Counted from the stretch's first letter, positions 16,611-59,635 are shown. The stretch: DNA of 64,000 bases from a bacterium (GCA_016789445.1 JAEUQT010000001.1:131603-195602); one strand, 5' to 3'. Translations and numbers: made by a program. The notes: generated by a model not told the origin, from the letters alone.

Positions 16611-16747
16611 CGCCAGACAAGGATACTTTGGAAACCCTCGGTTTTCCAACGGTCGCCGAAGCGACCTGCCTTCCGACACGGGGAACTCCCGTTCCCCGAC
16701 CCCCTCCCTATCCAAGTCTGGCAACAAATCTCGTTGCACTCAATTTG
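16611..16747 (-). repeat. tRNA-trailing element, subfamily 2 (after tRNA-Gln)
   Basis: It shares gaaaccctcggttt and cttccgacacgg[hairpin]ccgacccctccc with the copy at 21842-21989. An inverted copy of the tRNA 3' end (16712-16729) forms an 18-bp hairpin with 16743-16760. A degenerate direct copy (cgccagacaaggat) lies at 16611-16624. Confidence 0.7.
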
Positions 16748-16818
16748 TTGCCAGACTTGGATTCGAACCAAGATACACTCCTCCAGAGGGAGTAGTCCTA
16801 CCATTAGACGATCTGGCA
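16748..16818 (-). tRNA. tRNA-Gln (anticodon CUG)
   Basis: Manual cloverleaf: TGCCAGA / GTCT..GGAC / ACTCC CTCTGGA GGAGT / CTTGG TTCGAAT CCAAG / TCTGGCA A. No encoded CCA. Confidence 0.85.
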
Positions 16819-16866
16819 ATTCCTAGCCATTCTACACATTTTTCCCCCGCCCTCAACGTAGCGTTC

Positions 16867-17073
16867 ATGCGGAAGATACGCGACAATAGGGATATGCAGG
16901 ACAATCTCCGGCTGATCTTTTCGGGCCTTTGGTTCCCCGCGACAGGATCGCTGTTCGCGAGCACCCTTCTTTTCGTACTTACTTTGGGTGACTATTGGGA
17001 ATTCCTCCTCTACGCACTCGGCGCATGGATCATCTGCACCAGCGTCGTGATCCTCACCTCCCTCAATTCGTAG
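16867..17073 (+). CDS. possible small membrane protein (68 aa)
   Basis: This is only the C-terminal part of ORF 16585..17073 (from MRKIRDNRD). It has two hydrophobic helices. The 5' part of that ORF runs through tRNA-Gln and the repeat, so it is discarded. Confidence 0.3.
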   Translation: MRKIRDNRDMQDNLRLIFSGLWFPATGSLFASTLLFVLTLGDYWEFLLYALGAWIICTSVVILTSLNS

Positions 17074-18738
17074 CTATTTGATCTTCCGTGCGAGCGAAGC
17101 TTTGACGAACGCACTGAACAAGGGGTGCGGTGTGAGCGGTCGCGCCTTGAGTTCCGGATGGAACTGGGTACCGAGGAAGAATGGATGCTCATCCTTCGGC
17201 AATTCCGCGATTTCCATCAGCTTTCCATCAGGCGAGGTGCCTGAAAATACCAGACCTGCATCAGAAAGCTGCTCAACATACTCCGGATTCACTTCGAAAC
17301 GATGACGATGGCGTTCGGAAATCTCCCCTGCCCCATACGCCTTCTGCGCGACGGAGCCGCTCTTCAATTTGCACGGGTATGCACCCAAGCGCATCGAACC
17401 GCCGTAATCCTTTTTCTGCATCTTCTCGATCTGCTCAGGCAGGATCATGATGATCGGATGCTTGGTCTTCGGATCGATCTCCGTGGTGTGCGCTCCCGCC
17501 AGTTTCGCTACATGACGCGCGTATTCCACCGTAAGGAGCTGCATGCCGTAGCAAAGACCGAAGTACGGGATCTTGTTCTCGCGCACATATTTGATCACGT
17601 TGATCTTCCCCTCGATACCGCTTTCCCCGAAGCCCCCCGGCACAAGGATGCCATGATACTGAGAGAGCTCTTTCACCTTTGAAGGATCCTTCTGGTAATC
17701 CTTGGCGTTGAGCCAATGGATCTCCGGCTTTACACCGAGATGGAACGCGGAGAATTTGATTGCCTCGATGACTGAAAGATACGCGTCTGAAAGCACGAAA
17801 TCCCCCGTATCGAAATACTTGCCGACGATACCGATCTTAACCTTCTCGCGACCATTGTGCGCATGCGCCGCGAACTTACGCCACTCATTCATGTCCGACG
17901 CCTGCTTACCTTTCTTATTGAGCGCTTTGAGGAGGATGTCAGAGAGATTGTCGCGCTCGAAATTGAGCGGCACATCGTAGATGGAATCGACGTCCGGTGC
18001 GGAAATGATGTGATCCGCCGGGATGTTCACTTGGATCGAAAGTTTCTCCTTGCGCTTATCATCGAGCGGCGTATTCGCACGCGCGATGAGGAAATCCGGC
18101 TGCACGCCGTAGGCATTAAGCTGGCGCACGGCATTCTGCGTCGGCTTGGTCTTCATCTCGCCGATGGTCCCCGGCACCGGCATGTAGGAGACCATTACGA
18201 AAAGACAATCAGCCGGATTCTGAAGATGGATGACGCGTGCGGCATCGATGAAGAGCGCGTTCGAGAAATCCCCCAATGTCCCGCCGATCTCGATCACGGT
18301 CACATCGGATTTCGCGAGCTGCGCGCTACGCTTCAAACGCTCCACGACGGCGTCACGCACATGTGGCACTGCCTCGACACACTTGCCGCCGTAGCCGAGG
18401 TTGCGCTCGCGATCGATCACCTGCTTATAGATCATGCCGGAGGTCATGTAGTCCTCGGGGCCGAGATCGCGATTGAGGAAGCGTTCGTAGTTCCCCATGT
18501 CCTGGTCGGTCTCGAGGCCGCTATCCAAGACGAACACCTCGCCGTGTTCCGTCGGGTTCATAGTCCCCGCATCTACGTTGAGATACGGATCGATCTTCAC
18601 GAGATTCACCTTGAGACCTCGTGCGGCAAGAATCTTGCCGATCGAGGCAGTCGCGATCCCCTTACCGACGCCTGACATGACGCCTCCGATCACGAATATG
18701 TATTTATGGTTGTTTGCGCGCGCACGCGTTGCCGTCAT
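17074..18738 (-). CDS. pyrG: CTP synthase
   Basis: KYIFVIGGVMSGVGKG N-terminus, the glutaminase domain GLCYGMQ...HRHR(F)EVN, and a length of 554 aa. Confidence 0.97.
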   Translation of the reverse strand: MTATRARANNHKYIFVIGGVMSGVGKGIATASIGKILAARGLKVNLVKIDPYLNVDAGTMNPTEHGEVFVLDSGLETDQDMGNYERFLNRDLGPEDYMTSGMIYKQVIDRERNLGYGGKCVEAVPHVRDAVVERLKRSAQLAKSDVTVIEIGGTLGDFSNALFIDAARVIHLQNPADCLFVMVSYMPVPGTIGEMKTKPTQNAVRQLNAYGVQPDFLIARANTPLDDKRKEKLSIQVNIPADHIISAPDVDSIYDVPLNFERDNLSDILLKALNKKGKQASDMNEWRKFAAHAHNGREKVKIGIVGKYFDTGDFVLSDAYLSVIEAIKFSAFHLGVKPEIHWLNAKDYQKDPSKVKELSQYHGILVPGGFGESGIEGKINVIKYVRENKIPYFGLCYGMQLLTVEYARHVAKLAGAHTTEIDPKTKHPIIMILPEQIEKMQKKDYGGSMRLGAYPCKLKSGSVAQKAYGAGEISERHRHRFEVNPEYVEQLSDAGLVFSGTSPDGKLMEIAELPKDEHPFFLGTQFHPELKARPLTPHPLFSAFVKASLARKIK

Positions 18739-18800
18739 AACCGGAATATCTGTATCTTAGTCAGTAATATCCATCGTGACCGGAATGACTGTGCATAACC

Positions 18801-19718
18801 CTAGCTACGCAAATACCGGCGGACCGCCAGGAAGCTCGAGATGGCTCCCAGCGCGATGCCGAGTCCGATGATGGTGAAGAAAAGGCTCGGGAACGAGCTC
18901 ACGTAGTAGTCGAACACGTTGAAAGTGCCGAAGAATGCCTCAGACGCAGGCCCAAGCCAGATGGCCAACGGGTACAGGATAAGAAGCACGATGATGCCGG
19001 AAATGAGGCCGTAGAGAATACCCGCAACAACGAAGGGGCCGCGGACATACCAATGCCCTGCACCGACGAGATTCATGACCCCGATCTCATCACGCGCGGT
19101 ATAGATGGCGAGACGGATGGTATTGAACGCGATAAGCACGCTCGCTGCGGCGAGGAAGATAGCCGCGGCGATGCCGACGGTGCGCGAGGTCTCGATGATG
19201 TTGGTGAGGCGATCGATCGCCGTCTTGTTCTGGAAGAAGTTGACCTTGCTGATGGTGCTATCCGTCCCCTGCTGGGTCTCCAAGAACTGCGCGATCGATG
19301 CGTACTGCGACGTCTCCTTCGCGCGGATAGCAAGCGACGGACCGAGCGGATTCTCCGAGAGCTGATCGAGCGCCTGGATGGTCATCTGCTCGTTCTTATG
19401 GCGCTCACGGAACTCCGTCAGCGCCTGCTCGCGTGAGGTATACGCGACCGACGCGACTTCCGGCAATCGCTCAAGATCCTGCTTCACGCGCATCACCTGC
19501 TCTTCCGACGCAGTGGTGGTGAAGTAGACGTTCACATCCACCTTGTTGGTAAGCTGATCGAGCGTGGACTGGAGTGCAGCGCCGGAAACCATAAGGCATG
19601 CCATCACGAAGAGCGTGATGAGCATGATGAAGATCGCGGAGAGCGAAACGAAACCGTTACGGATGAAGCCGATGAGACCGTAGCGCGCGACACGTTTGGT
19701 GGTTACCCAGAATGACAT
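18801..19718 (-). CDS. ftsX: cell-division permease FtsX
   Basis: Four-transmembrane FtsX topology with a large periplasmic loop, directly downstream of ftsE. Confidence 0.85.
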   Translation of the reverse strand: MSFWVTTKRVARYGLIGFIRNGFVSLSAIFIMLITLFVMACLMVSGAALQSTLDQLTNKVDVNVYFTTTASEEQVMRVKQDLERLPEVASVAYTSREQALTEFRERHKNEQMTIQALDQLSENPLGPSLAIRAKETSQYASIAQFLETQQGTDSTISKVNFFQNKTAIDRLTNIIETSRTVGIAAAIFLAAASVLIAFNTIRLAIYTARDEIGVMNLVGAGHWYVRGPFVVAGILYGLISGIIVLLILYPLAIWLGPASEAFFGTFNVFDYYVSSFPSLFFTIIGLGIALGAISSFLAVRRYLRS

Positions 19719-19719
19719 A

Positions 19720-20409
19720 TTACAGAGTGTATTTACCTTCCTTATCGTCGCGCACGACGCGACCCTGATCCAAGGTCACGACGCGACGGCCGACCGAGTC
19801 GACAACGGTCTTGTTGTGGGTAGTGAGAAGTACGGTCGTCCCGAGGTTGTTGATCTTCTTGAGGATCTCCACGACGTCATGCGTGTTCACCGGATCGAGG
19901 TTGCCCGTCGGCTCATCGGCGATGAGGACGTCCGGCTGGTTGACGATCGCGCGCGCGATCGCGACGCGCTGCTGCTCACCGCCGGAGAGCTGTCGCGGGA
20001 AATGCCAGAGCTTGTCGCTGAGACCCACGAGATCGAGTACATGCGGGACATCCGCCTGGATGTCCTCATCAGGCTTCCCTGCCACTTCCATGGCGAACGC
20101 TACGTTCTCGTAGATGTTCTTGGATGGGATAAGACGGAAATCCTGGAAGATGGTGCCGATGTTGCGGCGAAGACCGAGGAGCTCCCTATCAGAAAGACCC
20201 GCGATCTCTCGCGAGCCGAAATAGACCGTCCCTTCCGTCGGGAAGATCTCAGCGAACAGCATCTTGAGGAGGGTCGTCTTACCGGCACCGGAATGCCCGA
20301 CGATGGATACGAATTCTCCCGGATCGATCGAGAGGGTGATGTCTTCGACAGCGGGCACGCCATCGCTATATTTCTTCGTCACTCGATCGAAATAAATCAC
20401 GGACCTCAT
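19720..20409 (-). CDS. ftsE: cell-division ATP-binding protein FtsE
   Basis: Walker [24 protein letters not shown] and Walker [12 protein letters not shown]. Confidence 0.92.
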
Positions 20410-20533
20410 TATACCCCACTCATGCGAGGTGCAACAATTTCATGAATCCTAGGCCCCCAGCTCCTTTTCAGCGTCGATAGAAAGCCTCGCTTTATATAGA
20501 CTTGCTGGCTCGAGAATAGAAAACCCGGGTTTT

Positions 20534-21415
20534 CTATTCTACTCGCTGCGCGGCGTCTATGAACGACTGGATGTCCCCTTCGAGCACCTTCTCGATGTCA
20601 CGGCGCTCATGCTCGGTACGATGGTCTTTGACGAGCTGGTACGGATGCAGCACATACGAGCGGATCTGGCTTCCCCACTCGATCTTTGTCGAAGCCCCCG
20701 CCGAAAGTCCGCGCGCTTCCGCTTCCGCTGCCGCTTCACGCATCTGGAACAGCTTTCCGCGGATCATCTCGAGCGCTTTCTCTTTGTTCTGGAGCTGGCT
20801 GCGCTCCGACGTGACATGGACGGAAATTCCGCTCGGCTTGTGCGTCATGCGCACGGCCGTGTCGCGCTTATTTACGTTCTGTCCGCCGGGGCCGCCGCTG
20901 CGCGCGACAGTGATCTCAAGATCGGTCTCGGGGATATGGTCATCACCCACGTCGGGCAGTTTCGGCAATACTTCCGCGAGCGCGAACGAGGTCTGCCGCT
21001 TTCCCGCGGAGCCGAAGGGAGAAATACGCACCAAGCGATGCACGCCTGCTTCTTTCTTCAAGGCGCCGTATGCGCCGTTGCCGCTTACTTCGAATGAGAT
21101 ACTGCGGAATCCTCCCATCGAATTCTCGTTGGATGAGAGGAGTGCATTCTTCCATCCGCGGTTGGCAGCGTATTTGGCATACATGCTGTAAAGGATGCGC
21201 GCGAAATCCTCCGCATCATCCCCTCCCGCGCCTGCGATGATCGAGATGATTGCGTCACCCTTGTCGTAGGAGCCTGCACCCGCAAGTTTCGCCTTCAGAT
21301 CTTGGTACTCCTTCAGTGTCGCCTGTGCCTTATCTTTATCCGACCAGAAATCCGGCAACCCCATTGCCGCCTCGATCTCTACGATGCGTGCCTCGATCAC
21401 CTCTTTCCCTTGCAT
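20534..21415 (-). CDS. prfB: peptide chain release factor 2 (short form, no frameshift site seen)
   Basis: SPF and GGQ motifs ([18 protein letters not shown]). ORF 20534..21442. Start likely MQGKEV. Confidence 0.9.
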
Positions 21416-21451
21416 GGCGGGAGTATAGCAAGAGGGGCGCATCTGCGCCCC

Positions 21452-21685
21452 TCAATGCAACGGCACTGCACGTACCAACATGATACGTATCGCGCCTTCC
21501 CATTGGACGAGGTCCCACACTCGAAATCGCGAGATACCTTCACCGTCTCGCGACGGAAGCGGAATTTCTTCCGATGTCTCACCGATATTCAAAAGCATGA
21601 GTATGACTTCCTCGTGATCAGGGTCGAGCTCAGCAACAAACTGAGGCTCATTGAGCCGATTACGGCAGTCCGCGAATACTCGCAT
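21452..21685 (-). CDS. hypothetical protein (77 aa)
   Basis: A strong GGAAAGGAGG lies 6 nt upstream of the ATG at 21685. No recognisable domain. Confidence 0.5.
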   Translation of the reverse strand: MRVFADCRNRLNEPQFVAELDPDHEEVILMLLNIGETSEEIPLPSRDGEGISRFRVWDLVQWEGAIRIMLVRAVPLH

Positions 21686-21724
21686 GCGCGACCTCCTTTC
21701 CTCTTCCTGAAGTGTACACCCTCT

Positions 21725-21800
21725 TGGAGCCGAAGACCGGGATTGAACCGGTGACCCCGTCTTTACGAAAGACGTGCTCTACCAACTGAGCTACTTCGGC
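21725..21800 (-). tRNA. tRNA-Thr (anticodon CGU), CCA encoded
   Basis: GCCGAAG TA GCTC..GAGC A CGTCT TTCGTAA AGACG GGGTC ACCGG TTCAATC CCGGT CTTCGGC T CCA. Confidence 0.9.
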
Positions 21801-21841
21801 AATGCGGATATCCTACGCGAAAATGCTGGATTTTCAATCTT

Positions 21842-21989
21842 ACGGTCCGGGATTTCACTGCTCGCCGTATTCTCGGCTGCGCTTTCGAAACCCTCGGTTT
21901 CGAATAACTTCCGACACGGAGGGGGTCCGGTGGGTCCCCCTCCGACCCTCCCCCGTTCAATCCCGGTCGGGCCTCTCGCTACGCTCGTG
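21842..21989 (-). repeat. tRNA-trailing element, subfamily 2 (after tRNA-Thr GGU)
   Basis: Same conserved blocks as 16611-16747. The inverted copy gttcaatcccggtcg (about 21953-21967) is complementary to the tRNA T-arm/acceptor. The degenerate direct copy acggtccgggatt lies at 21842-21854. Confidence 0.7.
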
Positions 21990-22062
<73 letters not shown>

Positions 22063-22078
22063 TAGTGGAGCCAAGATA

Positions 22079-22735
22079 TCACGCAATCGCGTAGTCCCAA
22101 AGCTCCCCTATGCGGGCCGTTATGGACGCATCGGCGATGTCTTCAGGATTCAGGTCGATACCGGAAAAGAGCATCTCTTCAAGCTTCAGGACGTTTACCG
22201 GGAACGTATCAGCGATATGTGCGGTCCCGTCCTCTTTCCAGGCAGCCGCATATCGCGCGGCCCCGTCTGCAAGGCGCTCCTGTACCGAGAGGACACCGAA
22301 CGGTCCGACGCGCATGTCCGCATACTGCACGATCTGCAGATTCACATCCTCACTCATCAGTATCTGCATCATATTGCGCAACCCCAGCTGATCAAAGATC
22401 CTCCGCTCAGCCCCCTTGCCTAACTCATCCAGTATCGCGTCGGTCGCCTCATGCTCCTCTGCTCCATATCGAGACCGGATCTTCTCCTGCACCCCCTCCC
22501 AATGAGGGATCTCATCTGGTGGGCAGAGTGATCGCAGGGCAGAATGCGTGGTATAGGTGAAATCGAATTTCACGATCGCACCGATATCGTGCAAGAGACA
22601 TGTCGAGAGGACGAGCCTGCTGTCCGCGCCCTGAATATGCTTCGCGAGCATCTCCCCTACTGCGGCCACGCGCAGCTGGTGCAGCTGCAGCCACGGCGGC
22701 ACCTGATATCGCTCGTAGAGTTCGCGAACGGTCAT
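22079..22735 (-). CDS. HD-domain protein (metal-dependent phosphohydrolase superfamily)
   Basis: H...LLHDIG motif; 218 aa. Confidence 0.7.
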   Translation of the reverse strand: MTVRELYERYQVPPWLQLHQLRVAAVGEMLAKHIQGADSRLVLSTCLLHDIGAIVKFDFTYTTHSALRSLCPPDEIPHWEGVQEKIRSRYGAEEHEATDAILDELGKGAERRIFDQLGLRNMMQILMSEDVNLQIVQYADMRVGPFGVLSVQERLADGAARYAAAWKEDGTAHIADTFPVNVLKLEEMLFSGIDLNPEDIADASITARIGELWDYAIA

Positions 22736-22752
22736 CGGCCCACCTTAACACG

Positions 22753-24318: not shown

Positions 24319-24427
24319 ATGACCCCCGAAAGCGCGAAGACGCTGACATCCGGATTAAACCATCTCGATGATGAGGTGAAGATGAAGATTCCCTTGCACG
24401 CTTCATTTTGGAGGTATACTGGTCGGT

Positions 24428-24811: not shown

Positions 24812-24832
24812 TACGACTGCTACAATACGCAG

Positions 24833-25666: not shown

Positions 25667-25670
25667 GTTT

Positions 25671-25899
25671 GAGTGACGGGACTCGGTCACAGATATTTCT
25701 TGCGCCGTCGGACAGATTTTTTCGCGACCATAGGCATCGTCTCGGCCAAGAGCTCATTCGTCGCCGTCGCTCCTCATTCCTCTCGGCCCTGATTTTGCGA
25801 CCCCGTCTGCTGACGGGTCCGCCGCAAAATCTTTCGAGTCCCGCCACTCTGCTGAAAAACGCAACAACCCCGACGGCATGCGTCGGGGTTGGCGTTTTG
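25671..25899 (-). repeat. tRNA-trailing element, subfamily 1, composite (after tRNA-Asp)
   Basis: The direct copy gagtgacgggactcg at 25671-25685 matches tRNA 25903-25917 and is followed by GTCACAGATA. The inverted copy is ttcgagtcccgccactc at ~25832-25848. A terminator hairpin CCCCGACG/CGTCGGGG with U-run (25855-25888) lies next to the tRNA. Confidence 0.8.
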
Positions 25900-25973
25900 C
25901 GCGAGTGACGGGACTCGAACCCGCAGCCTTTCCCGTGACAGGGGAATGCTCTAACCAATTGAGCTACACCCGC
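25900..25973 (-). tRNA. tRNA-Asp (anticodon GUC)
   Basis: GCGGGTG TA GCTC AATTGGTTA GAGC A TTCCC CTGTCAC GGGAA AGGCT GCGGG TTCGAGT CCCGT CACTCGC G. Confidence 0.9.
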
Positions 25974-26088
25974 AAGTGAGGAGTAAAGAGGATGCTAGCA
26001 TACTCTTTCTCCGAGCGCAGCGGGTGTATGAGCTCACGATTACACCCGCATTCAGAGGCGGCTAAGCCGCATGAGCCCGTACAATATA

Positions 26089-26370: not shown

Positions 26371-26539
26371 TGTCGAGGGTGGGGGTCGGTCACGAATAAT
26401 TTCTGTCCCGTCGGACAGAAATTTTCGCGACCCCGGCTCGCGGTCTCGCCTGCTGGCGAGACATCGCTCCGCCTTTCGACCCCCACACGCTGTGTGCGCA
26501 GGCACACAGCCCTCGACACAAATCCACTTCGTATATTTG
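26371..26539 (-). repeat. tRNA-trailing element, subfamily 1 (after tRNA-Met)
   Basis: The 18-nt direct repeat tgtcgagggtgggggtcg occurs at 26371-26388 and 26540-26557. Core hairpins lie at 26388-26432 and 26443-26462. The inverted copy is cgacccccac (26477-26486) + hairpin + cctcgaca (26511-26518). Confidence 0.85.
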
Positions 26540-26613
26540 TGTCGAGGGTGGGGGTCGAACCCACGACCTTGGCTTTATGAATGCCACGCTCTAACCAACT
26601 GAGCTACCCCGAC
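26540..26613 (-). tRNA. tRNA with CAU anticodon (elongator Met, or Ile2 if lysidinylated)
   Basis: GTCGGGG TA GCTC AGTTGGTTA GAGC G TGGCA TTCATAA AGCCA AGGTC GTGGG TTCGACC CCCAC CCTCGAC A. It has a 31:39 A-A mismatch. Confidence 0.85.
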
Positions 26614-27165: not shown

Positions 27166-27425
27166 GCAGGGCGGGCTTGGTCAAGAACATTTCTTGCTTC
27201 CGTCGAAGCAAGAAATTTCTCGGCCCTGATGTTGCGGGGGCGGGCTTGGTCACGGATAATCTTCGCGCCGTCGCGCGAAGATTTCCGCGACCCCGGCTCG
27301 CGGTTTCGCCCACTGGCGAAACATCGCTCCGCCTTGCAAGTCCAGCACGAAAAGCGCACCGGCGCTTTTCTCCCCGCGACTGCACAAACACAAAACCGCC
27401 CGTACGGCGGCTTTGTGTTTGCTTG
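27166..27425 (-). repeat. tRNA-trailing element, subfamily 1, tandem (one short plus one full copy; after initiator-like tRNA)
   Basis: The direct copy gttgcgggggcggg at 27231-27244 matches 27425-27438. A second degenerate copy gcagggcgggcttg lies at 27166-27179. The core hairpin P-a is at 27303-27322. The inverted copy is tgcaagtcc + hairpin + ccccgc, and a terminator hairpin lies at ~27391-27415. Confidence 0.85.
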
Positions 27426-27497
27426 TTGCGGGGGCGGGACTTGCACCCGCGACCTCCAGGTTATGAGCCTGGCGAGCTACTACTGCTCCACCCCGCT
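27426..27497 (-). tRNA. tRNA-Met (CAU), initiator-like, with non-canonical D- and T-loops
   Basis: A GCGGGG TG GAGC AGTAGTA GCTC G CCAGG CTCATAA CCTGG AGGTC GCGGG TGCAAGT CCCGC CCCCGCA A. It has a 1:72 A-A mismatch, no GG in the D-loop, and G at T-loop position 55. Confidence 0.75.
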
Positions 27498-29572: not shown

Positions 29573-29573
29573 A

Positions 29574-44415: not shown

Positions 44416-44585
44416 TGCGGAGAGGGAGGGATTCGGTCACGGATAATTTTCTGCTGAAAATTTCCGCGACCCCGCCTCGTCGCCTACGCTCCTGCGACTT
44501 TCGAATCCCTCCGTTTCGCTATGCGAAACCGCCACCCTTTCGGGCGGCGCTCTCCGCAAAAAACTTGCGGGTCTCGTTTTTTTTG
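44416..44585 (-). repeat. tRNA-trailing element, subfamily 1 (after tRNA-Ser) - clearest exemplar
   Basis: The 20-nt direct repeat tgcggagagggagggattcg occurs at 44416-44435 and 44584-44603. The hairpin GGTCACGGATAATTTTC tgct GAAAATTTCCGCGACC lies at 44435-44471. The inverted copy is ttcgaatccctcc + two small hairpins + ctctccgc. Confidence 0.88.
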
Positions 44586-44674
44586 CGGAGAGGGAGGGAT
44601 TCGAACCCTCGAGACAGTTTGACCCGCCTAACACGTTAGCACCGTGCCGCCTTCGACCACTCGGCCACCTCTCC
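44586..44674 (-). tRNA. tRNA-Ser (anticodon GCU), long variable arm
   Basis: GGAGAGG TG GCC GAGTGGTCGAA GGC G GCACG GTGCTAA CGTGT + variable arm + GAGGG TTCGAAT CCCTC CCTCTCC G. Confidence 0.9.
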
Positions 44675-50029: not shown

Positions 50030-50041
50030 CGGGACACCGTA

Positions 50042-50623: not shown

Positions 50624-50625
50624 AG

Positions 50626-50979: not shown

Positions 50980-50982
50980 GTC

Positions 50983-51148
50983 GTCACGGATAATTCAATG
51001 AGTGTCAATATCGAGTCCCCAGGGATAATTTTGTCGCCGTCGCTCCAAAATTTCCCCGGGCCTGGCTCGCGGTCGCGCGTACTCGCGCGACATCGCTCCG
51101 CCTCGGACCAGTAAACAAAAACAGCGCTCAATGCGCTGTTTTTGATTC
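50983..51148 (-). repeat. tRNA-trailing element, subfamily 1 (after tRNA-Ile), no distal direct repeat
   Basis: GTCACGGATAAT at 50983. There is an inner hairpin CCCAGGGATAATTTTG..CAAAATTTCCCCGGG, P-a GTCGCGCG tact CGCGCGAC (51072-51091), catcgctccgcc, and a short inverted match ggaccag. A bidirectional terminator ACAGCGC tcaat GCGCTGT lies at ~51121-51139. Confidence 0.8.
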
Positions 51149-51225
51149 TGGTCCGCCCTCTTGGATTCGAACCAAGGACCGCAAAGGTATAAGCTTTGTG
51201 CTCTAACCAACTGAGCTAAGGGCGG
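51149..51225 (-). tRNA. tRNA-Ile with genuine UAU anticodon, CCA encoded
   Basis: CCGCCCT TA GCTC AGTTGGTTA GAGC A CAAAG CTTATAC CTTTG CGGTC CTTGG TTCGAAT CCAAG AGGGCGG A CCA. Confidence 0.85.
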
Positions 51226-51260
51226 ATGCAAGCGATTATAGGCGCGCTTCCCTGTGGACG

Positions 51261-52400: not shown

Positions 52401-52495
52401 ATCAGCGGGAGTATAGCACCCGGTCTCCAGCGCTTGCTATTCCCTCCCAGAAGTGGATACTGGGCTTTTAGTGTGCTCTTACAAAGGAGGAATTA

Positions 52496-53722
52496 ATGGC
52501 ACCTCGTAGAGCGACCGCACCTGCGGCTCGCACGAAGCCGAAACTGAGGCGTAACCACGAGCTTCTGCCGTGGTACGACCAGGAAGTGCTGCGCATGTGC
52601 GCAGAGTTCGGCGGAATCTTCAACGCACACGCACATCTTGACCGTGCGCATACGCTTGAAGATACGTACTTGCGACACATCGGCACCACGCCGCTTGAAG
52701 CAAGCAGCCTCCCCCTCTCGGTGAAGCAGAATCTCGTCGGTGACCTCCACAAAGGACCCGCCTATACGAGAGAGAATCTCACCAAACGGATGAGTTACGC
52801 GATCGACCTTCAGATCGCGTATGGCGTTACGCGGCTCGATACCAATATCGACGCAACGCCTGATCTTCCGGATGATGGCCTGCTCGCTATCAACGTCGCC
52901 CTTGAGCTGAAGAAGAAGTACGCAGCGCAAGGATTCGATCTTCGCATCGCGCCGACACCCATCTTCGGGTTCAAGCACGATGAAAACGATCGACTGAGCC
53001 GATGGGAGGTCTTCGCGAAGGCAGCCGAGAAGTGCGATTACCTCTCGTTGCTGCCGGAAAAGGACGACTACCCCAAAGGAAGCAATCCTGACGGGAAAGT
53101 CGGTTTCAAGCGACACATTCGCATGGGAATGGAGCTTGCCTGCAAGCTCGGCAAGGAGGTGCAGTTCCACCTCGACCAGATGAATGTTCCCGGCGAATGC
53201 GGCACCGAGCGATTGCTCGATGTCCTCGAAGTACTGGACATGCCGTTCGTCTCCGGCCAGAAATTGCCGGCACCGACGGTCTGGATCATTCACATGATCT
53301 CGCCGTCGGCATACGACGAACTGCGGTTCGCACGCCTCATTGACCGCCTCTTGGAATTCCATGTGGGCGTCATCGTCTGCCCCAGTGCCGCGCTCTCGAT
53401 GCGTCAGCTTCGTTCTATCGAAGCCCCGACGCACAACTCGATCGCACGCGTTCTGGAGCTGGTGAAGCGCAGGGTCCCGATCCGACTTGGTACCGACAAC
53501 ATCGCAGATGTCTTCGTCCCGCAAGGCGACGGCGACATGCTTACCGAGATCAAGATAGGCGGCGTGGGCCTTCGGCTCAATCCTCCATCGATCTGGGCGA
53601 AGCTCGCGAGCGGCAAAGCGCCGAACAATGTCGATATCAACGGCGTCGGACGGATCCTCCACGAGGAACGCAAGGCCAACAGCAACGTCGGGCCTCCCGG
53701 CTGGAAACCAGCCGTCGAATAG
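52496..53722 (+). CDS. amidohydrolase-superfamily protein (cytosine-deaminase-like)
   Basis: HxH metal motif (FNAHAHLD), a later HLDQ, and GTDN..D. The opposite-strand ORF 52493..53746 is its shadow. Confidence 0.7.
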   Translation: MAPRRATAPAARTKPKLRRNHELLPWYDQEVLRMCAEFGGIFNAHAHLDRAHTLEDTYLRHIGTTPLEASSLPLSVKQNLVGDLHKGPAYTRENLTKRMSYAIDLQIAYGVTRLDTNIDATPDLPDDGLLAINVALELKKKYAAQGFDLRIAPTPIFGFKHDENDRLSRWEVFAKAAEKCDYLSLLPEKDDYPKGSNPDGKVGFKRHIRMGMELACKLGKEVQFHLDQMNVPGECGTERLLDVLEVLDMPFVSGQKLPAPTVWIIHMISPSAYDELRFARLIDRLLEFHVGVIVCPSAALSMRQLRSIEAPTHNSIARVLELVKRRVPIRLGTDNIADVFVPQGDGDMLTEIKIGGVGLRLNPPSIWAKLASGKAPNNVDINGVGRILHEERKANSNVGPPGWKPAVE

Positions 53723-53778
53723 TCGCAAAAAAGCCGCGGCGCACATGCGCCGCGGCTATTCTTTATTGGCTTTTTTTG

Positions 53779-55707
53779 TTAGACGAGCGGCGCGTGCTCG
53801 ATGTCCTCCTTCTTCTTCGGCACGATGCCGTTGGCGATGAGAATCTTCTCGAATTCATCGCGCTCAAGGTTTTCTACTTCGACGAGCGCTGCGGCAATCG
53901 CATCGAGTGCCTTGCGATGCTTCTTGATGACGTCTTCCGCGCGCTTATACGCACCCATCACGATCTCCTTCACTTCATCGTCGATCTTCGCGGAGACATC
54001 CTGCGAGAGCTCGCCCGGTTCGATACCGGCACCGAAGAGCGTGCGGCCCGGCGCCATTTCAAGCGCCATCGGTCCCATCTTTTCGGACATGCCGTACTTC
54101 GTGACCATATCGCGCGCAAGCGCGGTCAAGACCTGCAAGTCGTTCGATGCACCGGTCGTGATGTCGCCATACACCTCCTTCTCGGCGATGTAACCGCCAA
54201 GGGAGACTGCGATGTCATCGAGGAACTCGAGCTTGGACTGCATGCGGCGATCTTCGAGCGGAAGCTTCAACGTGTACCCTGCTGCGCGACCGCGGGAGAT
54301 GATCGAGACCTTGTGGACCGGATCTGCGTACTTGAGGATGGATGCGATGATCGCATGACCCGCCTCGTGATACGCCGTGATCTCCTTCTCCTTCTTGTTG
54401 AGGACATGCGAGCGGCGCTCAGGTCCGAGCATGACCTTCTCGATCGAACGGATGAGGTCGTACTGCGTGATTTCCGTGCGATCTTCGCGCGCCGCGAGGA
54501 TGGCACCTTCGTTCATGAGATTCGCGAGATCAGCGCCTGAGAAACCAGGAGTTCGCTCGGAGATGACACCGAGGTTCACATCCGGACCCATCGGCTTCTG
54601 GCGTGCATGGACATTGAGGATCTCCTCGCGATCACGACGGTCCGGCAGATCGATGGTGACACGGCGGTCGAAGCGACCCGGGCGAAGAAGCGCAGGGTCG
54701 AGGACATCCGGTCGGTTGGAGGCAGCCATCACGATGACTTTCTCGTTCGGCTCGAAGCCATCCATCTCGACGAGGATCTGGTTGAGGGTCTGTTCGCGCT
54801 CATCGTTACCGCCACCGACGCCCGTACCGCGGATGCGGCCGACGGCATCGATTTCATCCATGAATACGATCGCGGGAGCTGCACGCTTTGCCTGTTGGAA
54901 GAGATCACGTACACGCGATGCGCCGACACCCACGAACATCTCGACGAATTCTGAACCGGAGATCGAGAAGAACGGGACACCCGCCTCGCCGGCAACTGCA
55001 CGAGCGAGAAGCGTCTTACCGGTTCCCGGAGCACCCATGAGAAGCACACCCTTCGGGATACGCGCACCGATCTGGATGAACTTCTTCGGATTCTTCAAGA
55101 AATCGACGATCTCGGTGAGTTCGACTTTCGCTTCGCGTGCACCGGCGACGTCCTTGAACGTGACTTTCTGGCCATCATCTTCCGGCGAGACGAGGCGCGC
55201 CATCGAGCGACCGAAGGTGAATGCCTGCATGCCTGCGCCGCGCACCTGACGCGAGAGGTACCACATGATGCCGAGCAAGAGGAGGACCGGGATGAGAAGC
55301 GGGGCGAGCGTGAGCGCCCAGAAGCGGACACCACCCTGATCTTCCACCGTCACCTTCACGCTCGCGATCTCATCCGGCGTGAGGCCGTAGTTCGCGAGGG
55401 TCTCCGTAAACGACGCTTCGGTTTCCTTGCGGGATTCCTTTTCGGATTTGTCGTTGTAGGTCGCGGTGATGGTGTCCCCTGCTACCGTGAGTTCGGCAAC
55501 GATGCCCGAGCGGACATCCGCAGCGATCTGCGAGAGCGGGACCTCTTCGGTCTCCGTCATGAAATATTCGCGCACCGCACTGTAACCAGCGGAGAGCACG
55601 AGGAAGATCGCAAACGCGATCGCGAGCTGGGTCCAGATGTTCGGACCCTGCGGCAGGACGACTGGCTTCTTGCCTTTCTTCGGCTTCTCGGAGTTCTCTT
55701 CGGCCAT
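53779..55707 (-). CDS. ftsH: ATP-dependent zinc metalloprotease FtsH
   Basis: Two transmembrane helices, AAA Walker [14 protein letters not shown], the SRH, and the HEAGHA zinc site. Start set at [11 protein letters not shown]. Confidence 0.96.
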
Positions 55708-55782
55708 GATTGGCGCATTATACATATATGGGCACTGAACGGAAGATGAAGCCAGCGGCACCATGAATGCTATAGTCTCCCC

Positions 55783-56226
55783 ATGTCTCTCATCCGGAAC
55801 GACAAAGTCGGATTCGATTACACCATCCTTGAGGAGATCGAGGCAGGTTTGGAATTACTCGGCCTTGAGGTGAAATCCCTGCGTGCCGGACAAGGTTCTC
55901 TTAAAGGAGCACGCGTCGTCGCCCGCGGCGGTGAGGCATACTTGGTAGGAGCAACGATCCCCGCTTGGCAGGTGCTCAACGCTCCGAAGACCTACGACGC
56001 CCTGCGGACCCGCAAACTCCTCCTCTCAAAGAAACAAATTGCCCATATTTCAAGCGCCGAAGGACAGGATGGCTTGACAGTAGTGCCTCTTGCGGTGTAT
56101 AATAAAGGAAGGAGATTGAAGCTCGGTATCGCCATCGCCCGCGGTAAGAAGAAGGCTGACAAACGTCAGACTATCAAGGAACGCGACACGAAACGGCAGA
56201 TCGAGAGGACATTGAAAACTAAATAG
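55783..56226 (+). CDS. smpB: SsrA-binding protein SmpB
   Basis: GLELLGLEVKSLR...YD..R.RKLLL...I pattern and a basic C-terminal tail. It lies directly upstream of tmRNA. Confidence 0.93.
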   Translation: MSLIRNDKVGFDYTILEEIEAGLELLGLEVKSLRAGQGSLKGARVVARGGEAYLVGATIPAWQVLNAPKTYDALRTRKLLLSKKQIAHISSAEGQDGLTVVPLAVYNKGRRLKLGIAIARGKKKADKRQTIKERDTKRQIERTLKTK

Positions 56227-56346
56227 CGACTGATTCCCTTTCAGTCCTTCCCCATGAGATATTGGTCATTTTGCAGAGTACGACAGTTACAGAAAATTCC
56301 TGACACGAAAGAACTCGGTAGCAGAACAGTAATTCGATATCTCACG

Positions 56347-56730
56347 GGGGATGATTGGCTTCGACAGGGAGATCGATGCATATACATGCATGGCGGAAGT
56401 GGGTATCTTCCCAAAAACACCCAAACTCTAAGTGCAAACAAAACTGCACGGGGGGTTCTCTCGCCTATTCAGGTGAAGGACCTCGGCTTTGCTTTCGCGT
56501 AAGCCAAGGCAACCGTTCGTTCAGAGGTCTCCAATACTCTGATGCGAGCGTCATATCATTGGATACGGCTTCCCTATCACACCGTAGGTTAGTCTAAAGA
56601 AAGAGTGTCCGACGCGAAGCGATCTTGTGCGTTCCATACTCTCCGCGTTCAAAACCTTTGAACGCCCTACGCCTTGTAGATGTGTGTATGCGTTTCTCTT
56701 TGCACCGCGGTTCGATTCCGCGCATCTCCA
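56347..56730 (+). ncRNA. ssrA: tmRNA (SsrA)
   Basis: The 5' GGGGATGATTGGCTTCGACAGGGA pairs with the 3' ...GCGG TTCGATT CCGCG CATCTCC A (G3-U70). The tag frame 56434-56499 encodes ANKTARGVLSPIQVKDLGFAFA, then TAA. No encoded CCA. Confidence 0.93.
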
Positions 56731-56921
56731 CAGCCAATGCAAGCCGCCTTCCAGGCGGCTTTTGCATTTGCATTGCGACGGTGGAGATGAAGAAAGCGCC
56801 TGCGCGCTTTCTGCGGGGGTCTCGAAAGGCGGAGCGCTGTTCCGACAGCAGGCGGAACCGCGAGCCGGGGTCGCGGAAATTCAAAGGCGACGGCGTTTGA
56901 ATTATCTGTGACCGATTCCGC
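56731..56921 (+). repeat. trailing element, subfamily 1 (after tmRNA)
   Basis: Terminator AAGCCGCC ttcca GGCGGCTT TT (56741-56765). Inverted copy GGTGGAGATG + hairpin + GCGGGGGTCTCGAA. Core AGGCGGAGCGCTG, P-a 56839-56858, CCGCGAGCCGGGGTCGCGGAAAT...ATTATCTGTGAC (ends 56912). The direct copy cgattccgc at 56913-56921 matches 56713-56721. Confidence 0.85.
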
Positions 56922-56972
56922 CGCCGATATTCCTTCATGCAACCTTATGTGTTTTGATACGTCCACTGAGAT

Positions 56973-58298
56973 ATGCCGAAGCGATACTGGTGGAAGGATG
57001 CGAAGATATACGAGCTCTACGTCGATCGCTTCGCGGGGAATTTCCAGAACCTGACGGCACAATTGGATTACCTGGAGCGTCTTGGCATCAACGCACTCCA
57101 CATCCTCCCCCACTACCCGTCGCCCATGGCCGATGGCGGCTATGACGTGATGGAATATCTCAACGTCCGGCCGGAACTCGGCACGATCGAGGATTTCGAT
57201 ACCTTCCTCAAAGAAGCGCACCGCCGCGATATCAAAGTCATCATCGACTTCGTCCTCAATCACGTCTCAGAACATCATCCTTGGTTCTTGGAGGCGCGAT
57301 CATCGAAAGACAACAACAAGCGCGATTACTTTTTATGGAGCGAGAGCGGACACGAACTCGCCCTCGGTTGGAATGCCTTCCCCGACATCAAGCCTGGCAA
57401 TTGGATATTCAACGAAGAGACGCAGGACTACTACTATGCGACCTTCTATCCGCAGCAGCCGGATCTGAATTGGGACAATCCGGAAGTCTTCGCAAGCATG
57501 ATGCAGAACATGGATTTCTGGGCCGGCCGCGGCGTGGACGGCTTCCGCTTGGACGCAGCGGTGACGCTCATCAAACGAGACGGCACGCTCTCGAAAGGAT
57601 TGCCGGAAACGCACCAGCTCATCAAACGCATCCGCAAACACTTGGACACGAAATTCGGCGGCGAGATCGTCCTTCTTGCTGAAGCGCATCAGCACGTCAA
57701 AGAGATGAAGACGTATTTCGGGGACGGCGACGAATGCCATCTCGTGTACCATTTCTCACTCACCGAGCAGCTCTTCCTCGCTCTTATGCGCAATGATCGC
57801 ACCGAACTCGATGCGATGCTTGAGGAATCACGCGACATCCCGGAGAACTGCCAGTGGGCGATCTTTCTGCGCAATCACGACGAACTCTCGCTCGCGACAC
57901 TCGCCCCTGAAGTACGCACCGAGCTCATCACCTATCTTGATCCGAAGAGCGAATATCTTTTCAATGGCGGCGCAGCGACCGCCAAGAGGTTGGGCAGCAT
58001 GTTCGACGAAGCGAAGCTGCGCGAAGCGATTTCTCTCCTCTACTCGCTTCCGGGGGCGCCTATCATGTACTACGGCGACGAGATCGGCATGCAGAATCTT
58101 CCACGTACGGAAGGCGTGATCGACAGCCGCGTGTACGTCCGCGGTGAATTCGATTGGCTTGAGGCCGGGCTGCAGCGCAGTGATCCTGATTCCCTCTACA
58201 ACTTCACGAAGGGTGTCATCCGTAAATCACTCTGGCCATATAAGCGGGATTTCAATTCACCTCCCCCAGAAGAGGGATCGCCAAGCGACGACGAGTAG
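56973..58298 (+). CDS. GH13 alpha-amylase-family glycosidase (trehalose-synthase/amylosucrase-like N-terminal and catalytic domains)
   Basis: WWKDAKIYELYVDRF, GYDV.DY, DFVLNH, GFRLDA and the LLAE...NHD motif series. Confidence 0.85.
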   Translation: MPKRYWWKDAKIYELYVDRFAGNFQNLTAQLDYLERLGINALHILPHYPSPMADGGYDVMEYLNVRPELGTIEDFDTFLKEAHRRDIKVIIDFVLNHVSEHHPWFLEARSSKDNNKRDYFLWSESGHELALGWNAFPDIKPGNWIFNEETQDYYYATFYPQQPDLNWDNPEVFASMMQNMDFWAGRGVDGFRLDAAVTLIKRDGTLSKGLPETHQLIKRIRKHLDTKFGGEIVLLAEAHQHVKEMKTYFGDGDECHLVYHFSLTEQLFLALMRNDRTELDAMLEESRDIPENCQWAIFLRNHDELSLATLAPEVRTELITYLDPKSEYLFNGGAATAKRLGSMFDEAKLREAISLLYSLPGAPIMYYGDEIGMQNLPRTEGVIDSRVYVRGEFDWLEAGLQRSDPDSLYNFTKGVIRKSLWPYKRDFNSPPPEEGSPSDDE

Positions 58299-59556
58299 TC
58301 TCACCTTTGAAGAGTTGCCGCGTCCGCTCCGGCATGTCTCCTCGCTCGCCAAGATGCGCGCCGAATTTCATCGCCTGGAAACTCGAACCGAGGAAGACTG
58401 CGTGTTTACCGTATCGTTCCGATATCGCATCCACGCTCTCGAACACCATCTTCAATCCTTGGGATTCTTCCACTTTGCCGAAAAGATCGAGCTGAAGACT
58501 GTCCGCGGGGCGCAGCTGCGCGAGGGTCACGCCGCTCGCACGATACAGCTTCCCGTTCTCGAAAACCTGCGGGAAGAATTTAGCGACCTCGCGCAGGACA
58601 TCCTGCGGGACATTCGTGGGGTGCGGGAGCTTCACTTCGATACCGTGGTATCTGAAATCCTGTGTCTTGAGAAAGAAGAACACGCGATCACTCGCGAGAT
58701 TCCATCGGCGCGCCTTGATGCACGCATTCTCGACATTTTTGGAGAGCTGACTGAAGATAAACTTCGCATCGCGCAATGGTGGCGTGAAGGTCTTGGTCTT
58801 CTGGATGCTCTGGTAGCTGGTCTTCTTTTCCGTCGTGAGTGGATAGATGGCTTCGCCATTGAGCTCCCGCCAGATCTCCTGCACCGGCTTCGAAACTTTC
58901 GCACGCACCCATGGTTCGTTCTTGCGCGCAAAATCGAGCGCGCTCTGAATACCGAACTTATTGAGATACGCCGCAGTGTTTGGCCCGATCCCCCATACAT
59001 TCCCTACCGGCAGCTTTCCGAGAAATTTTGATGCGTCGCTGAGCGGTATCGAGGTGAGACCATCAGGCTTCTTCCATTTCGAACCGACCTTCGCCAGGAC
59101 TTTCGTCGCCGAGAGACCCACACTGAACGTGATGCCGAGCTTCACCTGCAGCTCCTGCTTAATGGAATGCGCCATGTCGTGGTAGTTCATCCGATTCACG
59201 CGGCGCATACCGGTGAGGTCCGCGAAGCATTCATCAATGGAATACTCCTCGACGGCAGGCGTGTAGCGACGCACGATCTCGTACATACGCTCTGAATATA
59301 GACTGTAGGTCTCGTAATCCGACGGCAGCACGATCGCATCTGGGCACGCTTCAAGAGCTTCGCTTAATTTGACCCCGCGCTTCACGCCGCGACGCTTCGC
59401 CTCGTAGGTGCACGCAGAGACGATGCCGCGCTCTTTGCCGGTGATGACCGGCTTACCGCGCAGCTTTGGATTCTTTGCCACTTCGACTGCAGCAAAGAAA
59501 GAGTCACCATCCACGTGCAGGATGGCTCTGGGATACGAGTATGACTTACCCCACAT
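58252..59556 (-). CDS. dinB: Y-family DNA polymerase IV
   Basis: ILHVDGDSFFAAVE, SIDECFADLTG and SVGLSATKVLAK motifs. It converges on and overlaps the GH13 gene by 47 nt. Confidence 0.93.
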   Translation of the reverse strand: MWGKSYSYPRAILHVDGDSFFAAVEVAKNPKLRGKPVITGKERGIVSACTYEAKRRGVKRGVKLSEALEACPDAIVLPSDYETYSLYSERMYEIVRRYTPAVEEYSIDECFADLTGMRRVNRMNYHDMAHSIKQELQVKLGITFSVGLSATKVLAKVGSKWKKPDGLTSIPLSDASKFLGKLPVGNVWGIGPNTAAYLNKFGIQSALDFARKNEPWVRAKVSKPVQEIWRELNGEAIYPLTTEKKTSYQSIQKTKTFTPPLRDAKFIFSQLSKNVENACIKARRWNLASDRVFFFLKTQDFRYHGIEVKLPHPTNVPQDVLREVAKFFPQVFENGKLYRASGVTLAQLRPADSLQLDLFGKVEESQGLKMVFESVDAISERYGKHAVFLGSSFQAMKFGAHLGERGDMPERTRQLFKGETTRRRLAIPLLGEVN

Positions 59557-59576
59557 AGGCCATGTACGTCCGGACT

Positions 59577-59635
59577 GTCACGGATAATTTTCTGCTGAAA
59601 ATTTCCGCAACCCCGCCTCGACACCTAAAGTGTCT
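59577..59635 (-). repeat. solo partial copy of the subfamily-1 core (no tRNA adjacent)
   Basis: GTCACGGATAATTTTCTGCTGAAAATTTCCGCAACCCCGCCTCG differs at one base over 44 nt from the Ser-linked copy at 44436-44479. It lies 20 nt upstream of the dinB start. Confidence 0.8.

Follow-up and report, generated by a model that had tools for sequence, protein, structure and literature searches.

Why should the transfer RNA (tRNA) genes of a small bacterial chromosome be trailed, one after another, by a non-coding segment built in part from the 3' end of the very gene that it follows? The question is raised by a 64,000-nucleotide stretch of bacterial DNA (GCA_016789445.1 JAEUQT010000001.1:131603-195602; hereafter the window), in which eight of the nine tRNA and transfer-messenger RNA (tmRNA) genes carry, directly 3', a tightly folded non-coding element of 60-260 bp that includes its own copy of the host gene 3' end. 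We show here that these elements belong to a widespread superfamily of small non-coding elements, with at least two families (types A and B), in the candidate phyla radiation (CPR, or Patescibacteria), and that their insertion sites are precise points within the 3' part of tRNA genes, tmRNA genes and some protein genes. The reading that we favor, with a probability of about 60%, is that they are miniature site-specific integrative elements, mobilized in trans, that replace and thereby preserve the 3' end of their target.

In the tRNA-sense direction, the order of parts is host gene, hairpin, inverted copy (X'), conserved core and direct copy (X2). The 3' end of the host gene, at the left end of the element, is called X1, and a further hairpin, Hx, often splits X' into an acceptor part and a T-arm part. 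ARAGORN and Rfam locate eight tRNA genes and one tmRNA gene in the window, and place the eight element-bearing host genes where the initial annotation had them. Its five pairs of direct repeats were likewise verified: 20 nt at tRNA-Ser (44416-44435 = 44584-44603), 18 nt at tRNA-Met, or 19 counting the next C (26371-26388 = 26540-26557), 15 nt at tRNA-Asp (25671-25685 = 25903-25917), 9 nt at the tmRNA (56913-56921 = 56713-56721) and, at the initiator-like tRNA-Met, 18 nt with one T deleted (27231-27248 versus 27425-27443), which is longer than had been reported. All five begin at T-loop position C56, as had been claimed. The general layout given there, with a direct copy at its end, fits these five and fails at tRNA-Ile, where the direct repeat is absent and the tRNA-matching inverted arm is 8 nt long. 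The inverted copies are equally real, with longest exact runs, within the last 25 nt of the host gene, of 15 nt for tRNA-Gln and tRNA-Thr-GGU, 13 for Ser, 12 for Met, 11 for Asp and 9 each for the initiator-like Met and the tmRNA; the Gln repeat reaches 20 nt once the trailer is counted. The initiator-like Met and Asp copies also hold partial older copies (27180-27230 and 25686-25729).

Could these matches arise with no element at all, from chance, from decayed tandem tRNA duplications or from old prophage attachment sites? Fragments of tRNA 3' ends downstream of tRNA genes are common leftovers of integrases, and the similarity of T loops does inflate short matches, related T arms giving 9-14 nt in our controls. 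However, when the tail of one tRNA was compared with the region downstream of another, the mean match was 6.2 nt direct and 6.6 nt inverted, and the long control values came only from the neighboring tRNA-Thr-CGU gene and from similar T arms. The direct repeats of 9-20 nt and inverted repeats of 9-15 nt lie far above these values, and the arms, which the initial annotation had allowed might prove no longer than expected by chance, are two to three times as long as the mismatched controls. The strings of the core are also far too frequent, with 4-7 occurrences in the window versus 0.02-1.1 in shuffles: ATTATCYGTGAC (at most one mismatch) has 7 sites where 0.42 are expected, a 21-nt core motif (at most three mismatches) has 4 where 0.02 are expected, and CATCGCTCCGCC (at most one mismatch) has 5, of which 4 lie inside elements and 3 are exact. 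Furthermore, a conserved and covarying 84-nt core separates the arms in over 120 copies spread across many genomes, and no integrase lies nearby. Decay of tandem tRNA genes was rejected on separate grounds: the inverted acceptor copy complements the tRNA 3' strand perfectly and thereby removes the G-U pair of tRNA-Met, so it is not a copy of the tRNA 5' strand. We therefore give the absence of any element next to no probability.

Are the nine copies a single family, as first annotated? A covariance model built from 59 sequences of the main core unites seven of them, with 92-103 bits for the Met, initiator-like Met, tmRNA and Ile copies and 34-41 bits for the Ser and Asp copies and an orphan copy with no tRNA; the host-linked ones are all co-oriented with their host gene. 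These seven share the type A core. The model gives no match at tRNA-Gln or tRNA-Thr-GGU, which have in common a different core, core B (GGGGGUCGG-hairpin-CCGUGUCGGAAG...AACCGAGGGUUUC), in the same layout, and are called type B. The two families look distantly related, the 5' hairpin of B resembling, by eye, the second hairpin of A (GGGGUCGCGG...CCGUGAC).

Both families reach far beyond the window. Among contigs of the GTDB genomes, with one genome per species, 109 stretches contain an exact 21-nt type A motif, nearly all of them from CPR and nearly all labeled Saccharibacteria, Paceibacterota (Kaiser-, Adler-, Taylor-, Nomura-, Zambryski- and Wolfebacteria), Moranbacteria or 'Patescibacteria group'; the organism of the window is itself placed by homologs of GatA among Kaiserbacteria-like Paceibacterota. 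A co-oriented tRNA or tmRNA gene lies no more than 450 nt upstream of 88 of the 120 type A copies with an intact 3' end (nhmmer, ARAGORN). The type B pattern was found in 70 metagenome contigs, in 36 of which a co-oriented tRNA gene lies at most 300 nt upstream. Cores that are 92-98% identical occur behind different tRNAs with very different arms, and tandem arrays are present at two loci (L109 and L017), in the first with a period of 139 and with whole units repeated. At another locus (L001:345-5411), about 5 kb of cargo, consisting of a periplasmic-binding-protein gene and several open reading frames (ORFs) without a Pfam match, separates tRNA-Gln from a type A core that is followed by a diverged copy of the tRNA 3' end, and cores can thus be the far end of larger inserts.

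The family does not appear to have been described. Searches of Rfam 15 with types A and B, at gathering and permissive thresholds, returned only tRNA and tmRNA, the best other E-values (0.05-0.6) falling far below the gathering scores. The exact core motif is not found in IMG/VR and the phage and plasmid collections gave no blastn match; by these searches neither family is present there, on which grounds a phage or plasmid origin was rejected; full-text literature searches found no description of such an element. These results agree with the initial annotation, which recognized no known insertion sequence (IS), MITE (a miniature transposable element with inverted repeats), integron attC site, CRISPR or Rfam family.

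The conserved part of the type A element is its fold. The 84-nt core forms two hairpin domains, the first consisting of GCG-N-AGCG-AUG, a 7-8 bp hairpin and then CCGCGAGCC, with a small internal loop of G/A opposite G-A, and the second of GUCGCGRAAAU, a variable hairpin and AUUAUYYGUGAC, one A being bulged. The final ...AUUAUYYGUGAC of the second hairpin stops precisely at the junction with the target. In the alignment, 97.4% of the cells are paired, versus 31-44% when the partners are slid, and 209 cells are changed on both sides, versus 48 in shuffles. One pair alternates between A-U (29) and G-C (26), at one position all 58 of the 58 sequences have G-U, and at a further one 30 have G-U and 25 G-C. 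Because the G-U pairs would be C-A mismatches on the opposite strand, it is the tRNA-sense strand that folds, be it as RNA or as single-stranded DNA. Type B likewise has two covarying hairpins, five copies being circularly permuted around the conserved strands. Folding with DNA parameters gave z-scores of -4 to -10.6. When the arms of the Met and Ser copies are included (z -10.6 and -8.6), the outer helix becomes an acceptor stem, Hx a side hairpin and the second helix a T stem plus half of a T loop, with the two core domains taking the place of the T loop.

The junctions with the target are correspondingly exact. In 26 of the 38 copies with a located upstream repeat, the target sequence GGTT|CGA.. 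(T55|C56) stands against the element end ..GTGAC|CGA.., and most of the others have their junction at another T-loop variant or where the tRNA ends (GGGCA|CAAAAG is an example). About 20 tRNA species and the tmRNA show such precise junctions, either at T55|C56 or at the 3' end. The junction at the 3' end of the element is fixed. The repeats range in length from about 5 to 75 nt, most of them stopping at the gene 3' end (18-21 nt), and repeats of 37-75 nt are found where a second, older unit follows (L017, L072, L109). The direct repeat thus covers the gene from the crossover, whether this lies in the T loop or at the 3' end, as far as the gene extends; the intact gene is on one side and the displaced fragment on the other.

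The inverted arm adds a second kind of precision. In 16 of the 18 copies with a perfect seed, X' reaches exactly 2 nt past the junction, and five of these targets have CA, CA, CC, GG and GT, not TT, at the 2 nt. It follows that X' matches the uninterrupted target rather than the joint between the element and X2. In at least nine copies, the bases opposite C56-G57-A58 are GAG instead of UCG, which places tandem G.A pairs beside the junction. An origin of X' by snap-back copying of the target was considered and rejected for the T-loop class, where Hx interrupts X' between its acceptor and T parts.

Targets other than tRNA follow the same pattern. At two loci (L013, L025), type A copies lie behind a protein gene ending ..MMGSSQ*, whose last codons resemble a T loop (GGGT|CGAGTCAG), and at three more (L043, L047, L060) the element interrupts a different gene near its 3' end (..GGCAC|CGAAAAC..), where 30 nt or more of the coding sequence are present twice; the gene end is duplicated at the first two loci as well. 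Type B copies are found likewise at the 3' ends of the L33 gene, an L7/L12-like gene and others. The last codons of the first gene differ synonymously between L013 and L025, and X' is complementary to the local version in each, so the X1:X' hairpin must be kept by compensation or by conversion. The alternative offered by the initial annotation, a family of tRNA-linked structured RNAs, is therefore sustained as regards structure, given the strong and strand-specific covariation, but not as regards a necessary link to tRNA.

How stable are the elements over time? Relatives of the window were located through GatA and compared at the sites of the initiator-like tRNA-Met, tRNA-Met and tRNA-Asp. The window itself has type A plus a remnant of an older, divergent form of type A (A2) at the first, type A at the second and an A2-type element at the third. 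In a relative with 96% identity in GatA (L110), the initiator-like site has an intact A2-type element with a tiny older remnant, the Met site has a type B element that is reversed and abuts the same tRNA 3' end, and the contig ends before Asp is covered; a reversed type B element is also present at L178. In the relative at 91% (L116), the initiator-like site has no element, the identical tRNA 3' end being followed by a terminator and the next gene, and the Met site has none either, the identical 3' end being followed by 51 nt and the next gene; the contig ends inside tRNA-Asp. In that at 90% (L113), the initiator-like tRNA is inverted and has no element, Met is empty, and Asp has an A2-type element. 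Sister genomes thus do contain the empty sites that the initial annotation had suggested looking for. Because the sites differ between relatives, and because tandem arrays and an orphan copy exist, the elements are evidently gained, lost and replaced on a short time scale. An attempt to define the inserted segment by comparing empty with filled trailers failed, as the flanks of the 91% relatives are too diverged.

Several side observations were made in these relatives. The inverted tRNA gene of the 90% relative (L113:7784-7856) shares a bidirectional terminator with the upstream gene and is a local inversion of a single tRNA gene with respect to the window and the other relatives. In a relative with 78% identity in GatA (L117), ARAGORN finds no tRNA downstream of GatA, where the window has the three genes just discussed; the stretch at 8877-13333 contains a large serine recombinase (with Resolvase, Recombinase and Zn-ribbon domains) and a Prim-Pol gene and looks like an integrated element. 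The contig of the 96% relative ends (8770) inside the reversed type B element behind tRNA-Met, and a shorter contig from a related sample (L111) ends (3376) about 70 nt past the same tRNA gene by gene coordinates; element repeats may break short-read assemblies of CPR genomes.

A rival explanation, which we consider unlikely, is a functional RNA. Short genes with high expression would then carry at the 3' end a structured RNA module that acts in cis and is transcribed by read-through from the tRNA promoter, with a role in 3'-end formation, processing, stability or read-through control, or as a new self-cleaving ribozyme cutting GUGAC|C; X' would pair alternately with X1 and with X2 as a decoy, and copies would spread by duplication or recombination. 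The strong covariation and the G-U pairs of the sense strand are what such an RNA should show, but a canonical terminator lies between gene and core at Asp, the initiator-like Met and the tmRNA (terminator scan), and in the 3'-end class Hx is a terminator in its own right, so that most transcripts should stop before the core. (The initial annotation had a terminator hairpin as usual; a canonical one is present only at these three by the scan and, by eye, at Ile. A scan found no promoter-like sites inside the elements.) The presence of a copy behind eight of the nine tRNA and tmRNA genes of the window also speaks for it, yet the identical tRNAs of the 91% relative manage without it. The three-way junction, whose branch point holds the junction phosphate and whose outer helix resembles an acceptor and T arm, has the look of an RNA, but the acceptor-like helix perfectly complements the 3' strand instead of imitating the G-U-containing tRNA stem, which better fits a mimic of duplex DNA. 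Type B circular permutation, the tandem G.A variants and the compensated X1:X' pairing at the two protein-gene loci also speak for an RNA; against these must be set the reversed type B elements at the same place in the 96% relative and at L178, the free decay of X2 (tmRNA, Ile), and the fact that no ribozyme or RNA family of Rfam is matched.

A retroelement would likewise use a sense-strand fold, and the CPR genomes are rich in reverse transcriptases of the type found in diversity-generating retroelements. On this explanation, which strikes us as improbable, a non-autonomous element would be co-transcribed with its host gene, like R2 in ribosomal DNA, and copied by a distant reverse transcriptase through target-primed insertion, which would leave a fixed 3' junction and a duplication of variable length; X'...X2, on either side of two structured domains, also resemble the a1/a2 repeats of a retron non-coding RNA. 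The fixed junction at the 3' end of the element, the variable other end of the repeat (5-75 nt), the inverted repeats flanking a short-hairpin and a long-hairpin domain, and the choice of highly transcribed targets are all consistent with it. However, the ends of the repeats are not random but gather at the tRNA 3' end, X' matches the genomic trailer and not a mature tRNA bearing CCA, the core has terminators upstream of it, and tails of poly-A or a similar kind are absent. Inspection of the window by eye showed no reverse transcriptase, and no gene family recurs near the 109 loci beyond housekeeping neighbors.

Our model of the results as site-specific integration is as follows. An incoming element would bring X1, that is, everything from the insertion point to the gene 3' end, and so keep the gene intact, while the displaced original 3' end, X2, would be left behind the element to decay there. 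We propose this polarity because the repeats end at the gene 3' end, because remnants stack, and because the sublocations are those used by integrases. The element would move as, or be recognized as, a folded single strand of tRNA-sense polarity; single-stranded DNA is more likely than RNA for this form, given the terminators upstream of the core. These terminators, the sense-strand fold and the outer helix, which is a perfect duplex copy of the target, together argue for a folded site of single-stranded DNA. X' would pair with X and close a three-way junction that presents the junction phosphate. It could also pair with the naive target, from 2 nt to the left of the insertion point to 10-20 nt to the right, and select the point of insertion, either in the manner of the end guides of IS200/IS605 or by target mimicry like that of attC and the CTX-phage attP. 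New targets would be acquired by off-target insertion at T-loop-like sequences, followed by conversion of the arms to the local sequence. The chemistry would be carried out by a recombinase or nuclease encoded elsewhere in the genome, since none was found in or beside the elements.

Site-specific integration of this kind was the first of the two suggestions in the initial annotation, in which a mobile or integrative element targets tRNA genes and restores their 3' ends, and it gains support from the empty sites, the replacements, the stacked remnants and tandem arrays, the precise junctions and the repeats, which usually stop where the tRNA does. Other observations weigh against it. The search for an enzyme, described below, found none, and neither a circular nor a single-stranded intermediate has been seen; a recognizable X' is absent in some copies; and the local matching of X' in L013 and L025 suggests that the X1:X' hairpin itself matters in the resident copy. 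Near-identical cores with different arms imply either free recombination between core and arms or arms that are made locally, at insertion, for which the model accounts poorly. Presence and absence could come from ordinary homologous recombination after DNA uptake, with no dedicated machinery, and the circular permutation of type B and the recurrent tandem G.A pairs opposite G57-A58 are typical of functional RNAs.

A bolder version of the model, which we entertain only tentatively, makes X' a true guide: one core and an unlinked enzyme would be directed to any sequence complementary to X', with X1 serving as a repair copy. Insertion would then be nucleic-acid-programmed, via single-stranded DNA or RNA, and a change of about 20-40 nt would rewrite the target.

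The search for the enzyme covered the window and the neighborhoods of the 109 type A loci. Inspected by eye, and for five of them also by a Pfam scan, the ORF translations of the window show no integrase and no Y1/HUH transposase (TnpA, or the RAYT proteins associated with repetitive extragenic palindromic, or REP, sequences). When all ORFs within 4 kb of the 109 loci were clustered, no recombinase recurred, and the clusters consist only of syntenic housekeeping neighbors, namely a membrane protein beside tRNA-Arg, a tRNA-binding-domain-like protein (by eye), FtsH, SmpB and a Mur ligase. Pfam finds no recombinase in the 5-kb insert at L001. A linked enzyme in the island with a serine recombinase and Prim-Pol at L117 was rejected, the covariance model finding no type A core there.

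Among known systems, the closest in logic are the integrase-borne islands and prophages of tRNA and tmRNA genes, whose sublocations within these genes Williams reportedly described in Nucleic Acids Res. in 2002. They too insert at the T loop or the 3' end, supply a new 3' end and leave the displaced fragment as a direct repeat, they too stack in successive insertions, and they also use the 3' ends of protein genes (e14 in icd). The elements described here behave like them but encode no integrase, which is the defining test of that class. They also differ in being gene-less and 90-260 bp long rather than 5-100 kb with an integrase, in that one core serves dozens of targets, in that an inverted target copy is part of the element, and in that the conserved part is a single-strand fold and not a set of arm-type protein binding sites.

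The strand-specific, structurally conserved hairpins that mark elements derived from IS200/IS605, or REP-like elements, are present here as well. With IS200/IS605 elements, palindrome-associated transposable elements (PATEs) and the REP/REPIN sequences that depend on RAYT, our elements share wobble pairs, a bulged base, the lack of terminal inverted repeats, and non-coding copies moved in trans and placed behind genes. In IS608, the target and cleavage sites are picked by base pairing with a short guide in the element end. That guide is fixed and 4 nt long, whereas here it would be target-specific and 12-20 nt long, and the junction lies at a distance from the hairpin there and at its base here. 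The present elements thus behave like single-strand hairpin elements, but with target-specific arms and with duplication of the target 3' end, which does not occur in IS200/IS605.

The comparison with attC sites and the attP(+) site of CTX phage, on which XerCD acts, rests on the conserved lower stem, bulged base and variable upper stem or loop, on a folded strand that mimics the target duplex, on the activity of one strand and on a host-encoded or unlinked recombinase. Here, however, there is no fit to the R-box consensus (RYYYAAC/GTTRRRY) or to dif, and insertion is into tRNA T loops and gene ends instead of attI or dif, with arms that vary from copy to copy. An integron attC itself was rejected: the conserved end is AUUAUYYGUGAC| followed by C(G/A)A, and GTTRRRY is absent from the alignment.

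Complementarity between an element and the intact target across the insertion point is also known from group II introns (through exon- and intron-binding sites, EBS/IBS), R2 and the bridge RNAs of IS110, and co-transcription with a highly expressed host RNA gene is possible. The present elements differ in that there is no place for an intron-like splicing logic, the host gene being intact upstream; no ribozyme or family of Rfam is matched, no reverse transcriptase or DEDD recombinase is adjacent, and the hairpins lack internal guide loops such as a bridge RNA has. X' and X2 flank a short-hairpin and a long-hairpin domain in the way that a1 and a2 do in the non-coding RNA of retrons, which is a resemblance only; the elements have no adjacent reverse transcriptase gene.

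Other candidates were rejected more simply. The elements are not MITEs, as they have no shared terminal inverted repeats, only the copy-specific target arm being inverted, and no fixed short target-site duplication, the repeats ranging from about 5 to 75 nt. They are not CRISPR arrays, the copies being dispersed singly behind genes and the tandem arrays repeating whole units. The three-way junction has, by eye, the type I topology of a hammerhead, but the core nucleotides CUGAUGA and GAAA are absent. A group I intron in the T loop is excluded by the intact host tRNA and by an element end that is not G; the introns described in CPR tRNA genes lie at position 35/36 in the anticodon loop (PMC13011429).

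The individual copies of the window illustrate these features. The window has the gene content of an ordinary small bacterial chromosome, its ORFs including TypA, CTP synthase, FtsX, RF2, GatCAB, LigA, type IV pilus genes, RecG, FtsH, SmpB (adjoining the tmRNA), DinB and LexA. The copy of tRNA-Met (type A; 26371..26539, minus strand; tRNA 26540-26613) has 102.8 bits in the covariance model and a DNA fold of -60.6 kcal/mol (z -10.6). From the tRNA outward, it consists of a spacer hairpin, the inverted acceptor copy (26510-26520), Hx (26490-26509), the inverted T-arm copy (26475-26486), the core (26389-26472) and X2 (26371-26388). The copy of the initiator-like tRNA-Met (type A; 27169..27424, minus strand; tRNA 27425-27497) scores 102 bits, with 16.7 bits for the remnant, and has a terminator (27388-27418), the inverted acceptor copy (27370-27377), Hx (27349-27370), the inverted T-loop copy (27335-27343), the core (27249-27332) and X2 (27231-27248). 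Beyond these lies what is left of the older element, a second hairpin domain (27180-27228) with its own X2 (27169-27179); the homologous older type stands intact in the 96% relative. The initiator-like tRNA itself has an unusual T loop, UGCAAGU, with G at the position of U55, which is near-universal in tRNA T loops; a UGCAACU T loop occurs in tRNA-Cys genes at several CPR loci (L011, L155, L166).

The divergent A2 copy of tRNA-Asp (25671..25899, minus strand; tRNA 25900-25973) scores 33.9 bits and has an orthologous copy in the 90% relative; its parts are a terminator (25865-25891), the inverted T-arm copy (25833-25845), a degenerate core (25745-25827), an extra copy of the second domain (25686-25729) and X2 (25671-25685). 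That of tRNA-Ser (type A with a reduced first domain; 44416..44585, minus strand; tRNA 44586-44674; 40.6 bits, z -8.6) has the inverted acceptor copy (44550-44563), two hairpins (44513-44549), the inverted T-arm copy (44500-44512), the core (44436-44504) and X2 (44416-44435), which abuts the stop codon of a convergent ComF-like gene. The orphan type A copy (59577..59639, minus strand; 40.6 bits) is near-identical to the second domain of the Ser copy and sits between a PemK-like toxin gene and the start of the DinB gene. The PemK/MazF-like gene (59683-60168) is directly upstream of it, the DinB start is 20 nt downstream, and LexA is the next-but-one gene.

The tmRNA (56347-56731) carries a type A copy on the plus strand (56732..56921; 95.6 bits), made up of a terminator (56741-56761), the inverted acceptor copy (56781-56789), Hx (56791-56812), a decayed inverted T-arm copy (56813-56826), the core (56829-56912) and X2 (56913-56921), of which 9 nt are left, the rest having decayed. 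The copy of tRNA-Ile-UAU (type A, '3'-end class'; 50983..51148, minus strand; tRNA 51149-51225; 92.1 bits) has a terminator-type hairpin (51117-51143), an inverted copy of the tRNA 3' end (51104-51111), the core (51018-51101) and an extra 3' end (50983-51017); several basal pairs of the second hairpin of its core are changed on both sides, CCGGGG/CCCUGG replacing UCGCGG/CCGUGA. Its host, which has the anticodon UAU that is rare in bacterial tRNA-Ile, is the only tRNA gene of the window with an encoded CCA, the other seven having none.

The two type B copies are both on the minus strand. That of tRNA-Gln (16612..16746; tRNA 16747-16818) consists of the inverted copy of the tRNA 3' end (16710-16729), core B (16625-16709) and an imperfect direct copy (16612-16624). 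That of tRNA-Thr-GGU (21847..21989; tRNA 21990-22062) has the inverted copy (21955-21969), core B with a tail ending AGCAGTGA (21855-21954) and a short direct copy (21847-21854), and is followed by a promoter-like site and the gene of tRNA-Thr-CGU. Because this promoter-like site (21810-21837) comes immediately after the type B element, the two Thr tRNA genes seem to be transcribed as separate units, the element lying between them.

CPR/Patescibacteria have among the smallest and most streamlined of bacterial genomes, and the 84-nt core spans Saccharibacteria to Paceibacterota; the family would be an abundant mobile, or at least fast-turnover, component of these genomes that standard annotation does not report. 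The elements join features so far seen apart: they follow integrative logic in rebuilding the end of the target gene, encode no protein, fold as a single strand, and have an arm that complements the intact target on both sides of the cut. Should this arm direct insertion, they would constitute a new natural system of programmable insertion, and if they are instead functional RNAs, a widespread new class of RNA tied to tRNA 3' ends.

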